A stretch of DNA of 51,799 bases from Candidatus Babelota bacterium (GTDB lineage Bacteria > Babelota > Babeliae > Babelales > Babelaceae), in the NCBI GenBank assembly GCA_003484685.1, contig DNBB01000031.1, positions 7,713-59,511 on the forward strand, given 5' to 3'. This document shows, one piece after another, positions 12,551 through 15,261 of the stretch (position 1 is its first letter; each line of letters opens with the position of its first letter). Position numbers and translations under genes: made by a program. The notes below the pieces were generated by a model. It did not search any database. It saw only the letters and a list, made by a program, of their open reading frames with translations, and had not been told where the DNA came from.

Positions 12551-13186
12551 CTACTTTTGCACATCCTCTACCTCAATAAACACATTGTACACCCCAAGAG
12601 CCTTGTCCACGCTTTGTTTCCAAATAACGGTGTATTTTATTCCTGCATCATACTCAAAGGTTTTCGTATCTGGCTGAGTAAGAGGAAACACTATGCCCCC
12701 ACGGCGAAACAATGTAACCGTCGCAAATTCCTTATTTGTACACATAAACATAAAAGGCAAAGTATCGACAAAAATTGTCCGATCAGAACCGAACAACGGA
12801 AATCTTTCAAAAGCTTTTACCCTTTGTCCAGGCATTACCTCTTGCTCAGATGAAGTTTGCCATTCATCACTAGCCCGATTTAAATAGGAGGACGAAACAA
12901 CAATTGTTCGGTTAGTTTGATTAGAAACAAAGAACTCTGAAGCTAACTGCGTCTTTAGTCTTTCTAGATTGGCCGATAATTCTTGTCGTTTTATTTGAGA
13001 AAAGAAGTCAAACCCATCATGTAACTCTTTTTCAATAGCATGGATCTTTTGTATAACTTCATCTTGAGTTTCATATTTTTCTTCTGCTCCCTCGGCACTG
13101 GTCCACCAAGGAAACAAGGAAAATGCCAACCCAATCATCGCGAGAACAAAAAATCCGATTGCAACCGATGGTATGACCTCTTTCAT
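12551..13186 (-). CDS. exported/membrane-anchored ORFan, paralog-family member 3
   Basis: 211 aa with N-terminal TM VAIGFFVLAMIGLAFSLFPWW. QEVMPGQRVKAFERFPLFG matches KELGPGQRESLDFINRRGFFG in the upstream gene. SD gaaagg. Confidence 0.7.
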   Translation of the reverse strand: MKEVIPSVAIGFFVLAMIGLAFSLFPWWTSAEGAEEKYETQDEVIQKIHAIEKELHDGFDFFSQIKRQELSANLERLKTQLASEFFVSNQTNRTIVVSSSYLNRASDEWQTSSEQEVMPGQRVKAFERFPLFGSDRTIFVDTLPFMFMCTNKEFATVTLFRRGGIVFPLTQPDTKTFEYDAGIKYTVIWKQSVDKALGVYNVFIEVEDVQK

Positions 13187-13205
13187 AGTTAGCCTTTCTC
13201 AAGAT

Positions 13206-13751
13206 TTATTGAATTTCAAACTCAATGTCATGAAGAAGCGAGTTAATCCACCAGCTTATTTTGATAGGTGGTAACGTATCTTGACGAACTTGCCCGCGCG
13301 GACCGCTAATCGCAACTTTTTTCTTGCTATCACCGCCAAGCCCCAAAAATCCGCTTGCATGAACAGCATGCCACTCATCAGGCCCTTCAAAACGCTGGCT
13401 TACGCCAACACTGAGTTGATTTCCTTCAAAGCGCACAAATAGGTAAATAGGACGACCAAATGCGCGGGAATTCTTAGTTGGCTGAACCATAAATACTTTA
13501 TTTGAATTCTCATCGACGCCAAAAAAACCGCGGCGATTAATAAAATCGAGACTCTCGCGTTGACCCGGACCCAATTCTTTTTGTATTGTGCCATACGCCA
13601 TATCAGCACCCTCTGCAATCTTCATTGGCGGCAACACGTACAAAATATCAGGGGTTCCGTTTTTTAAAATTATTTCGGTCTTCCAGGGACCGGCGTGTAC
13701 ACTTGATAAAACAAGTCCAAGCGCCAGAGCAAGGTATAGATGCATTTTCAT
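13206..13751 (-). CDS. secreted ORFan, paralog-family member 2
   Basis: 181 aa with signal peptide MKMHLYLALALGLVLSSVHA. The C-terminus PPIKISWWINSLLHDIEFEIQ resembles the C-terminus of the 428-aa protein. SD aaaggagag. Confidence 0.75.
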   Translation of the reverse strand: MKMHLYLALALGLVLSSVHAGPWKTEIILKNGTPDILYVLPPMKIAEGADMAYGTIQKELGPGQRESLDFINRRGFFGVDENSNKVFMVQPTKNSRAFGRPIYLFVRFEGNQLSVGVSQRFEGPDEWHAVHASGFLGLGGDSKKKVAISGPRGQVRQDTLPPIKISWWINSLLHDIEFEIQ

Positions 13752-13800
13752 GACAAACTCTCCTTTTTTAGAAAAATTAAATTTTTTTTAAATATTATAT

Positions 13801-13962
13801 TCACTTCATCTGCTCGCACCCTTGCAAACATTTTTCGCGCTGCCAGCTTTTTTGAATCTGTTTGCAACCCTTTTTACACAGATCCTTCTTCCACGCACCT
13901 GCCTGTAAGCCGCTTACCAGAGCGAGAAGGCTCAAACCGTACATACAATTTTTAATGTTCAT
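13801..13962 (-). CDS. small secreted Lys-rich twin-CX3C peptide (53 aa), not in the ORF track
   Basis: ATG at 13962 lies 7 nt after aaggag. The translation is MNIKNCMYGLSLLALVSGLQAGAWKKDLCKKGCKQIQKSWQREKCLQGCEQMK*. I translated it by hand, and the frame fits the flanking track ORFs. Confidence 0.6.
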   Translation of the reverse strand: MNIKNCMYGLSLLALVSGLQAGAWKKDLCKKGCKQIQKSWQREKCLQGCEQMK

Positions 13963-13974
13963 CCTCTACTCCTT

Positions 13975-15261
13975 TTACGCTGGTAACAGCTCAAAATAAA
14001 AATCATGCAAGAAGTACTTAGAGCTATTCAGCCACCAGTCAATTTTTATCTTCAGACCTGGCGCAATGCGGTAAGTCGCAGCACCATTATGGCCGCCAAC
14101 ATACGCACGCACATTTTCAGGGATACTTGGTGAGGTAACGTTAACCCAGAGCAGGTCACCATCAAAGCCGGTATGCAACGTGCATAACTCTTTTCCCTGC
14201 GAATCGTACACAACAAAAGCGCTTTGATCTTTAATAAAGACAATGCGTAATTGAGCGCCGGCAAATGCTTCTTCGCGAGGGCTCAACTCAATAAGATCGC
14301 CTGCTTGTGTCTTTACAATTACAGCATTAGAAAGATCATTTTTAATGAAGACCGCCGCCGCTCCCGTGGTGAGTTTAGGAACTTCTTTTGCACGGCGCAA
14401 GCCTTCTTGCAATGCACGATTGATTAACAATTGCGAACGATCCCAAAGCTTCTTTAGTTCTTCTGGACCCCGTTCGGCCCCTTCTTCAACCAATATACCC
14501 GCTTGTTTTAATTGATCTCCGACAAATTGAATTGTGCGTCCCGTAGCTTTGACTACTGTTTTGCCGCCTTTACTTATTGTTTGGCCAACAAATTCAGCAC
14601 CACTTCCAACAGCGCTCAATCCACTCTGTAATGCGTTAGCAACAGCGCTTACAAATGCATCAGATGCCGCAATCGCAGCATCAGTTACCGGACGTGTTGT
14701 TTCTACAATAAACTCGGCGCCACCTTTGGCACCTTCATAGACAATGCGTGCTCCTCCAGCAACAACCTCTCCGACTTTTTGTGCACCCTCCTTGGCCACA
14801 GACGCCACCGCTCCTGCACCTGATGCAACGGTTCTGCCCGCTGTCTCGGCTCCTTGCACCACCGCATCAACAACAGGTTTAGTGGTTTGGTAGATAACTT
14901 CTGCCCCTTTGGCAGCAGCATCACCAACGGCTTGAGCGCCAGTAGCTACTGTCTTACCCACTGTTTCTGCCCCTTGAGATACAACATCGCCAACCTTTTG
15001 CGCACCGCGCGCAGCGGCATCTCGAGCGGCTTCTACACCTGTTGAAACACCCTTGGCAACATCTTCAGCTCCTTTACGGGTCGTTTCCCAACCAGATGAA
15101 ATATCCTGCGAAACAGCTTCGCTGCCCTTAACCACCGTCTCATGCGCGAGTTCGGCACCTTTTTTAATCTGTTCACCCAAAAAACCAAGCGTGGCTCCCG
15201 CATGCATCAACCCCCAAGAGAGCATTACGATGCCAAGGACGCCTATAATATGCTTGTTCAT
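13975..15261 (-). CDS. secreted protein with Ala/Gly/Val-rich 11-residue repeats and the family C-terminal module, paralog-family member 1
   Basis: 428 aa with a signal peptide (MNKHIIGVLGIVMLSWGLMHAGA). Residues about 33-265 are xGAxxVGxxVx 11-mers. The C-terminus reads GLKIKIDWWLNSSKYFLHDFYFELLPA. Strong SD aaaaaggag. Confidence 0.8.
   Translation of the reverse strand: MNKHIIGVLGIVMLSWGLMHAGATLGFLGEQIKKGAELAHETVVKGSEAVSQDISSGWETTRKGAEDVAKGVSTGVEAARDAAARGAQKVGDVVSQGAETVGKTVATGAQAVGDAAAKGAEVIYQTTKPVVDAVVQGAETAGRTVASGAGAVASVAKEGAQKVGEVVAGGARIVYEGAKGGAEFIVETTRPVTDAAIAASDAFVSAVANALQSGLSAVGSGAEFVGQTISKGGKTVVKATGRTIQFVGDQLKQAGILVEEGAERGPEELKKLWDRSQLLINRALQEGLRRAKEVPKLTTGAAAVFIKNDLSNAVIVKTQAGDLIELSPREEAFAGAQLRIVFIKDQSAFVVYDSQGKELCTLHTGFDGDLLWVNVTSPSIPENVRAYVGGHNGAATYRIAPGLKIKIDWWLNSSKYFLHDFYFELLPA
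14467..15165 (-). repeat. coding tandem 11-residue (33-nt) repeats
   Basis: KGAEDVAKGVS TGVEAARDAAA RGAQKVGDVVS QGAETVGKTVA TGAQAVGDAAA KGAEVIYQTTKPVVDAVV QGAETAGRTVA SGAGAVASVAK EGAQKVGEVVA GGARIVYEGAK GGAEFIVETTRPVTDAAI .. Confidence 0.75.

Follow-up and report, generated by a model that had tools for sequence, protein, structure and literature searches.

An exported-protein gene cluster of a small Dependentiae clade, with a putative beta-rich domain shared by two of its members

Organisation and export signals of the cluster

In a 51,799-nucleotide (nt) stretch of DNA from a Candidatus Babelota bacterium (contig DNBB01000031.1; the window, in whose numbering all positions are given), we analysed a cluster of four consecutive genes, all on the minus strand, which we call A, B, C and D and which encode proteins of 428, 53, 181 and 211 amino acids (aa). 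We assign the window to candidate division TM6 (Dependentiae) bacterium GW2011_GWF2_43_17, assembled from a groundwater metagenome (GCA_000999285.1, contig LCFV01000003.1). In the predicted product of gene A (13975-15261), a signal peptide is followed by ~22 amphipathic repeats of 11 residues, a short helical linker and, at the C-terminus, a beta-rich domain, while gene B (13801-13962) encodes a signal peptide followed by a ~31-residue basic peptide with a twin CX3C pattern. Gene C (13206-13751) combines a signal peptide with a stand-alone copy of the C-terminal domain of A, and gene D (12551-13186) a membrane anchor with a helical hairpin and a ~130-residue beta-sandwich. A preliminary description of this DNA had placed four open reading frames (ORFs) here, separated by 12 nt (A-B), 49 nt (B-C) and 19 nt (C-D), and our coordinates reproduce both the ORFs and the gaps.

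The same description had given each gene its own Shine-Dalgarno sequence, and this was borne out: A, B and C each have a GGAG-type ribosome binding site (RBS) 5-9 nt upstream, and D has a weaker AAAGG. The RBS contexts before C (13755-13769) and A (15264-15278) are near-identical over 15 nt, reading AAAAAAGGAGA[G/A]TTT on the coding strand. A consensus scan placed a promoter-like site with an extended TG (TTGAAA-18-TATTTT; 15296-15325, minus strand) upstream of A, although such sites are no commoner there than in shuffled sequence and are hence weak evidence, and it found no convincing terminator between the cluster genes or just downstream of D. The shared strand, the short gaps and a gene order that is kept in diverged genomes are those of an operon, with B as its positionally unstable member.

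All four N-termini, judged by a rule of thumb, have the features of Sec export, with a Lys-containing n-region and then a hydrophobic stretch (maximum 12-residue Kyte-Doolittle value of 1.9-2.6 within the first 20 residues). In A, B and C this stretch closes with (H/Q)AG, with small residues at -1 and -3, and these proteins therefore appear to carry cleavable signal peptides. D instead has a transmembrane-like segment of 19+ residues, which coincides with an AlphaFold helix at residues 6-23, so that a signal peptide or anchor on every member, as first described, is also what we predict. The same crude rule assigned a signal- or anchor-like N-terminus to 14 of the 43 ORFs in the window, indicating that exported proteins are not rare here. 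Elsewhere, at 38162-40397 on the minus strand, three adjacent genes (227, 335 and 189 aa) again all have signal-peptide-like N-termini. [quoted passage not shown] Exported-protein clusters of this kind are common, and indeed the norm, in Dependentiae.

A domain shared by A and C, and its relation to D

It had been proposed that A, C and D end in a common beta-rich domain behind swappable N-terminal parts. This arrangement held for A, in which the domain sits behind the ~240 residues of repeats, and for C, in which it stands alone, and it failed for D. Profile-profile alignment with hhalign, which had been suggested as a check, joined A to C and left D apart from both.

The domain occupies residues 299-428 of A (13978-14367, minus strand), is homologous to C, and has its strongest block at residues 388-426 (13984-14100). 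The observation that A and C end alike was confirmed by BLASTP (E = 6e-5, over the last 21 residues only), by profile Smith-Waterman alignment against column shuffles (z = 10.9 for the terminal block, and z = 0.66 for the rest of the domain), and by hhalign, in which the C-terminal block alone gave E = 2.6e-9 and the N-terminal two thirds alone E = 0.0069. When the alignments of A and C orthologues were compared, hhalign returned E = 1.2e-6 over 33 columns, and the A C-terminus against a nine-sequence C profile gave a probability of 95.9 and E = 5.3e-9 over 126 columns. Most of the signal is held by the last ~40 residues (IKIxWW..LLHDxEFE). Distant C paralogues bridge the two proteins: GGHNGAATYRIAPGLKIKIDWW in A matches VGNGSHTFQIKPDLYIKVSYW in P0006, a distant C relative described below. 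Once distant C paralogues had been added, hhalign aligned the first hairpin (VFIKNDLSNAVIV versus EIILKNGTPDILYV) at fairly high posterior confidence, and likewise the previously noted pair FIKNDLSNAVIV / ILKNGTPDILYV. A further pair, LRIVFIKDQSAFVVYDSQ / IYLFVRFEGNQLSVGVSQ, proved to have been set in the wrong register, as the profiles align YLFVRFEGNQLSVGV of C with CTLHTGFDGDLLWVNV of A.

From these alignments we conclude that a single domain is common to A and C over its whole length, its end carrying most of the signal. The comparisons show a previously undescribed, putatively beta-rich domain of ~130-160 residues that ends in IKIxWW..LLHDxEFE, for which we use the name WW-LHD. Judged by profile-profile similarity that includes the terminal block, the C-terminus of A is a member and D is not. 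On sequence grounds, the finding is a new domain family of two members, together with C-like paralogues in more distant genomes. Foldseek matches of an AlphaFold model of C were dismissed as meaningless, with a predicted local distance difference test score (pLDDT) of 41.8 and TM-scores of about 0.3.

D was not significantly similar to A or C, whether compared by sequence or by profile. With hhalign, D gave E = 0.27-0.36 against C and E = 0.18-0.39 against A, profile Smith-Waterman z-scores over shuffles were 0.25 and -0.03, and a hidden Markov model (HMM) of D found no C or A sequence. The C/D match that had been pointed out, KELGPGQRESLDF.. / QEVMPGQRVKAF.., is peculiar to the D of the window: the C-family HMM gave this protein 9.5 bits, a score reached by 1 of 3000 shuffles, and gave its orthologues in three related assemblies (L006, L008 and L011, introduced below) -0.5 to -1.2 bits, which is chance level. 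Homology of C and D through this PGQR..FG.D motif was therefore rejected, and since the match is present in the D of one genome only, we regard it as a coincidence found by eye rather than a family signature.

The AlphaFold2 model of D had a mean pLDDT of 65.4, with residues 80-150 at 70-87, and about ten strands. Its predicted parts are a transmembrane helix (residues 6-23), a helical hairpin (41-78) and a beta-sandwich (80-211), and Foldseek, including PDB and BFVD, matched it only to generic beta-sandwiches (TM-scores 0.25-0.44), with the pVHL beta domain, PUD-1/PUD-2, Vps13 VAB and ostreolysin A in its lists. These features leave some room for the view that A, C and D all carry one ~130-residue beta-rich C-terminal module, of which D would be a very divergent third member. 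The C-terminal 130 residues of D are modelled as a beta-sandwich of similar size, aegerolysin-type sandwiches occur in the Foldseek lists of both the C and D models, and a helical segment directly precedes the beta domain in A and D (E = 0.45; z = 1.9). The best D-A and D-C alignments by hhalign, insignificant as they are, are also collinear, both starting from a 'hydrophobic-x-N-x5-hydrophobic' first hairpin. We nevertheless consider a three-way module unlikely, in view of hhalign E-values of 0.27-0.39, Smith-Waterman scores at shuffle level, a D HMM that is blank on A and C, and a motif at chance in three orthologues. In addition, D lacks the WW..LHDxEFE end, and two more distant genomes keep C-like genes without any D. 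The modelling and profile searches together show D as a predicted membrane-anchored beta-sandwich protein without detectable relation to A or C.

Conservation and genomic context

Three further Dependentiae assemblies have the gene order A-(B)-C-D: L006 (a Logan assembly; order A-C-D, with B absent), L008 (GCA_964549625.1, titled Candidatus Babeliaceae; order pre-A-B-C-D) and L011 (GCA_964598055.1; order B-pre-A-C-D-F-G), where 'pre', F and G denote further genes described below. In all three the cluster adjoins the same tyrosine recombinase, P-type ATPase, ProRS, DnaN and RecF genes as in the window. Amino acid identity to the window proteins was 40-71% for A, 65-83% for C and 41-52% for D, and the C orthologues as a set span 65-97% identity. 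Synonymous sites were saturated (proportion of synonymous differences, pS, 0.70-0.87), and the ratio of nonsynonymous to synonymous substitution (dN/dS) was about 0.1-0.2 where computable, including 0.10-0.20 for the A orthologues, which are 376-428 aa long. These comparisons show that the predicted cluster genes are real and that purifying selection acts on them.

An exhaustive HMMER search of 1.84 billion representative proteins with a C profile built from two sequences returned two clusters only, P0002, which contains the C orthologues, and P0006, a distant relative of C (E = 5.7e-5). L014 (5865-6914) has a tandem pair of C-like paralogues (156-166 aa), one of which is P0006, and the same pair is found in L016 (TM6 bacterium GW2011_GWE2_42_60; 5386-6495), at an equivalent chromosomal site between ATPase and EamA genes and with neither A nor D. 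Ahead of each pair is a gene for a ~545-aa signal-peptide protein, for which no Pfam match is on record. The C profile run against GTDB species representatives and the D profile run against JGI metagenomes together yielded just one new locus, L016, plus a near-identical one, L017. A word-indexed homologue search with the C-terminal 179 residues of A returned no match, not even to close relatives, in a collection from which the exact window A is itself missing, and the distribution of A is thus known solely through synteny.

Scans of all members against Pfam and NCBIfam gave nothing above threshold, and PDB sequence searches with three family profiles gave nothing below E = 0.009, which agrees with the initial view of a lineage-specific, exported cluster without a named domain. 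The label 'ORFan' that came with this view was overstated, as at least four related genomes keep the cluster and two others, more distant, have C-like genes. On present sequence evidence the cluster is confined to a small Dependentiae clade (TM6; Babeliaceae-like groundwater and wastewater metagenome-assembled genomes).

Two components had been overlooked in the preliminary description. The first is the twin CX3C pattern of B, in which C29-x3-C33 and C45-x3-C49 lie 11 residues apart within a motif, WKKD[LV]CK.GC...W.RE.CL.GC, that is conserved in three genomes. Homologues of B in which all four Cys are invariant were found by tblastn in L008 at the same position (9238-9411; E = 7e-13) and in L011 at the head of the cluster (7505-7669; E = 1e-14), and B was not present in L006. 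B had a proportion of nonsynonymous differences (pN) of 0.28 versus a pS of 0.87, and its pattern could form two inter-helix disulfides. The L011 copy is uncalled as a gene in the source record.

The second is a decayed fifth cluster gene, 'pre', whose remnant (15398-15598, minus strand) lies in the 386-nt interval upstream of A. Intact copies in L008 (7519-7881) and L011 (7688-8038) encode 116-120 aa with a signal peptide and the same kind of amphipathic repeats, and tblastn with these two proteins recovered the window remnant at E = 1e-9 and 2e-7, respectively. A stop or frameshift breaks the remnant, in which the beginning of the signal peptide is missing, and three independent assemblies of the organism agree on its sequence at 99.7-100% identity. 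In L011, D is followed by the extra paralogues F (253 aa) and G (300 aa) at 10674-12365, which are 35% identical and both have signal-peptide-like starts.

Genomes differ in which genes lie between EamA and the recombinase or ATPase. This variability, and the presence of a Phage_integrase-family gene (15648-16658) 386 nt upstream of the cluster on the opposite strand, are what one would expect if the cluster were mobile-element cargo delivered by the adjacent tyrosine recombinase. However, the recombinase is syntenic with P-type ATPase, ProRS, DnaN and RecF in four genomes and scores best against XerA, XerD and XerC models. We found no flanking direct repeats, the nearest tRNA is 25 kb away (tRNAs at 40.6 and 47.1 kb), the GC content of the cluster is inside the range of the whole window, and the cluster was not found outside the clade. 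An integrase-borne genomic island was therefore rejected for lack of att repeats and a nearby tRNA and because of the synteny with housekeeping genes, and delivery as mobile cargo in any form seems to us very improbable.

Downstream of D lies a 700-nt stretch (11852-12550) without an ORF of at least 120 aa, and beyond it a 224-aa ORF (11177-11851, minus strand) with a GTG start, no signal peptide, no family match and no counterpart in L006, L008, L011, L014 or L016. Outside the cluster, at 10985-11075 on the minus strand, Rfam gave a sub-threshold match to the TD-2 small RNA (36.4 bits versus a gathering threshold of 48.7; E = 0.009) that overlaps a perfect 15-nt palindrome at 11015-11046, and this site is probably a terminator between convergent genes rather than a small RNA.

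Amphipathic repeats of A and the possible role of the cluster

The longest segment of A, residues 23-265 (14467-15195, minus strand), had also escaped the preliminary description. It is rich in Ala, Gly and Val and consists of ~22 copies of an 11-residue repeat over ~240 residues, with BLOSUM autocorrelation peaks at 11, 22, 33 and at 40, 51, 62, 73 (z 6-10, with 8-10 at multiples of 11) and a 33-nt periodicity visible in the DNA. A 62-residue higher-order duplication, seen for example as GAEVIYQTTKPVVDAVV (residues 119-135) versus GAEFIVETTRPVTDAAI (residues 181-197), gave an autocorrelation z of 10.3 at offset 62. The helical hydrophobic moment was 1.38, versus 0.61 ± 0.06 in shuffles (z = 12), and amphipathicity is kept in three A orthologues (moment z 10-11) though identity drops to 40%. 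Some indels among the orthologues are of 11 or 22 residues.

Repeats of 11 residues form lipid-induced 3-11 helices, in which helix length governs lipid-droplet targeting (PMC5889406). The repeats of A have the 11-residue periodicity, the high moment and the length (>66 residues) of a 3-11 amphipathic helix, and the sub-threshold Pfam matches of the four A proteins are mainly to families of lipid-surface helices (Senescence in 3 of 4, Phasin_2 in 2 of 4, Apolipoprotein and Perilipin in one each). Because all of these matches are sub-threshold, the lipid-binding reading rests on periodicity and composition, and the likeness of the A repeats to lipid-coat helices is, by analogy, one of mechanism and not of family membership.

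We infer the function of the cluster proteins as follows. An envelope or host-interaction role is plausible from the sequences, and we give a probability of roughly one half to the reading that this is a lineage-restricted, vertically inherited cluster of Sec-exported envelope or host-surface proteins that work in the following way. On contact with lipid, the repeats of A would fold into a long 3-11 amphipathic helix, as in apolipoproteins, alpha-synuclein, perilipins and phasins, and this helix would keep A attached to the surface of a membrane or lipid droplet beyond the bacterial cytoplasm. Candidates for that surface are the degenerate outer membrane or the vesicles of the bacterium itself and, if A is passed on by type II secretion, membranes or lipid droplets of the host. 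The domain common to A (as a fusion) and C (on its own) may serve as the working or partner-binding end; D would remain in the inner membrane, facing the periplasm, and B may act as an accessory in the form of a disulfide-stapled helical hairpin.

Several points weigh against this reading. The signal peptides and the anchor were called by a rule-of-thumb heuristic. A TATAAT lies within the B-C gap and B is located elsewhere in L011, both of which bear on the idea of a single transcript. The AlphaFold model of C, with its low pLDDT, came from a three-sequence alignment, and its Foldseek matches had TM-scores of at most 0.33 and a best E of 0.029. All family matches of A fall below the Pfam gathering thresholds, with Senescence at 20.2 bits versus a threshold of 24.6, Apolipoprotein at 18.4 versus 90, and Perilipin and Phasin_2 at E = 0.01-0.02 in some orthologues; BLASTP of the A repeats against alpha-synuclein gave E = 0.4, and homology was rejected. 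Finally, regions that are LEA-like (late embryogenesis abundant) or merely disordered and coiled also show such periodicity and composition.

A rival to this reading is a purely periplasmic housekeeping or stress role, in which A would be an LEA/YtxH-like protectant or a structural coat on the cell's own membranes, C and D its periplasmic partners, and no host contact would occur. Group-3 LEA proteins are also built of 11-residue repeats. Sec signal peptides guarantee export only to the periplasm, D is modelled as anchored in the inner membrane, the cluster sits among housekeeping genes and is vertically inherited, and C is still 83% identical while synonymous sites are saturated. A periplasmic role is thus possible, and yet we find it doubtful, as a family found in a handful of genomes among 1.84 billion representative proteins is unusual for a core envelope function, Pfam returned no LEA or YtxH match, and gene content differs between close relatives ('pre' decayed, B lost or moved, F and G added) in a way more typical of accessory or host-interaction genes.

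The envelope or host-surface reading also has a bolder form, in which A is a secreted mimic of eukaryotic lipid-droplet or membrane coat proteins of the perilipin/apolipoprotein type that coats a host lipid surface, the WW-LHD domain, also present as C, is a new effector domain that recruits or modifies something there, and D and B are envelope-side parts. As a whole this version appears improbable to us. Dependentiae are widespread, almost uncultured intracellular parasites of protists, and their host-manipulation toolkit is largely hidden in unannotated signal-peptide proteins. The cluster offers three handles on it: a new domain family present in few genomes, a predicted secreted protein whose long 11-mer amphipathic helix resembles the coats of eukaryotic lipid droplets and membranes, and a conserved mini-protein with putative disulfides. 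Should A bind host lipid surfaces, it would offer a simple example of how Dependentiae reach host lipids; if it does not, the cluster would be one more lineage-specific envelope gene set, of limited general interest.

Among known systems, A is best compared with apolipoproteins A1/A4/E (PF01442), perilipins (PF03036, notably Plin4), the Senescence domain of spartin (PF06911), phasins (PF09361) and alpha-synuclein. Like these it is strictly 11-periodic with a strong hydrophobic moment, and it likewise builds its non-polar face from small residues (Ala, Val, Gly, Thr) and extends well beyond 66 residues. It differs from them in its Sec signal peptide and its C-terminal beta domain, and neither a PAT domain nor a four-helix bundle was detected in it. 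B shares the twin CX3C pattern of the small Tim proteins (PF02953), but it has no Pfam match, is bacterial and predicted to be Sec-exported, and has a mature peptide of only ~31 residues. The top Foldseek matches of the C and D models, namely aegerolysins (ostreolysin A), PLAT domains, the pVHL beta domain, PUD-1/PUD-2 and Vps13 VAB, are likewise all-beta and of ~130 residues. With TM-scores of 0.25-0.44 and best values of 0.31-0.44, root-mean-square deviations of 7-12 A, no Pfam or PDB sequence signal and a pLDDT of 41.8 for the C model, the likeness to these lipid-binding or generic beta-sandwiches is a lead only. Further parallels are the signal-peptide ORFans and putative effectors of other Dependentiae (C. 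destructans and Babela massiliensis; PMC6561590, PMC4776705), which belong to the same phylum and are likewise Sec-targeted, unannotated and lineage-restricted, and the cluster, like them, occupies a variable interval between conserved housekeeping genes. In contrast to those proteins, the cluster has no recognisable eukaryote-like domains such as ankyrin or F-box, and is built instead on an internally shared new domain and on amphipathic repeats.

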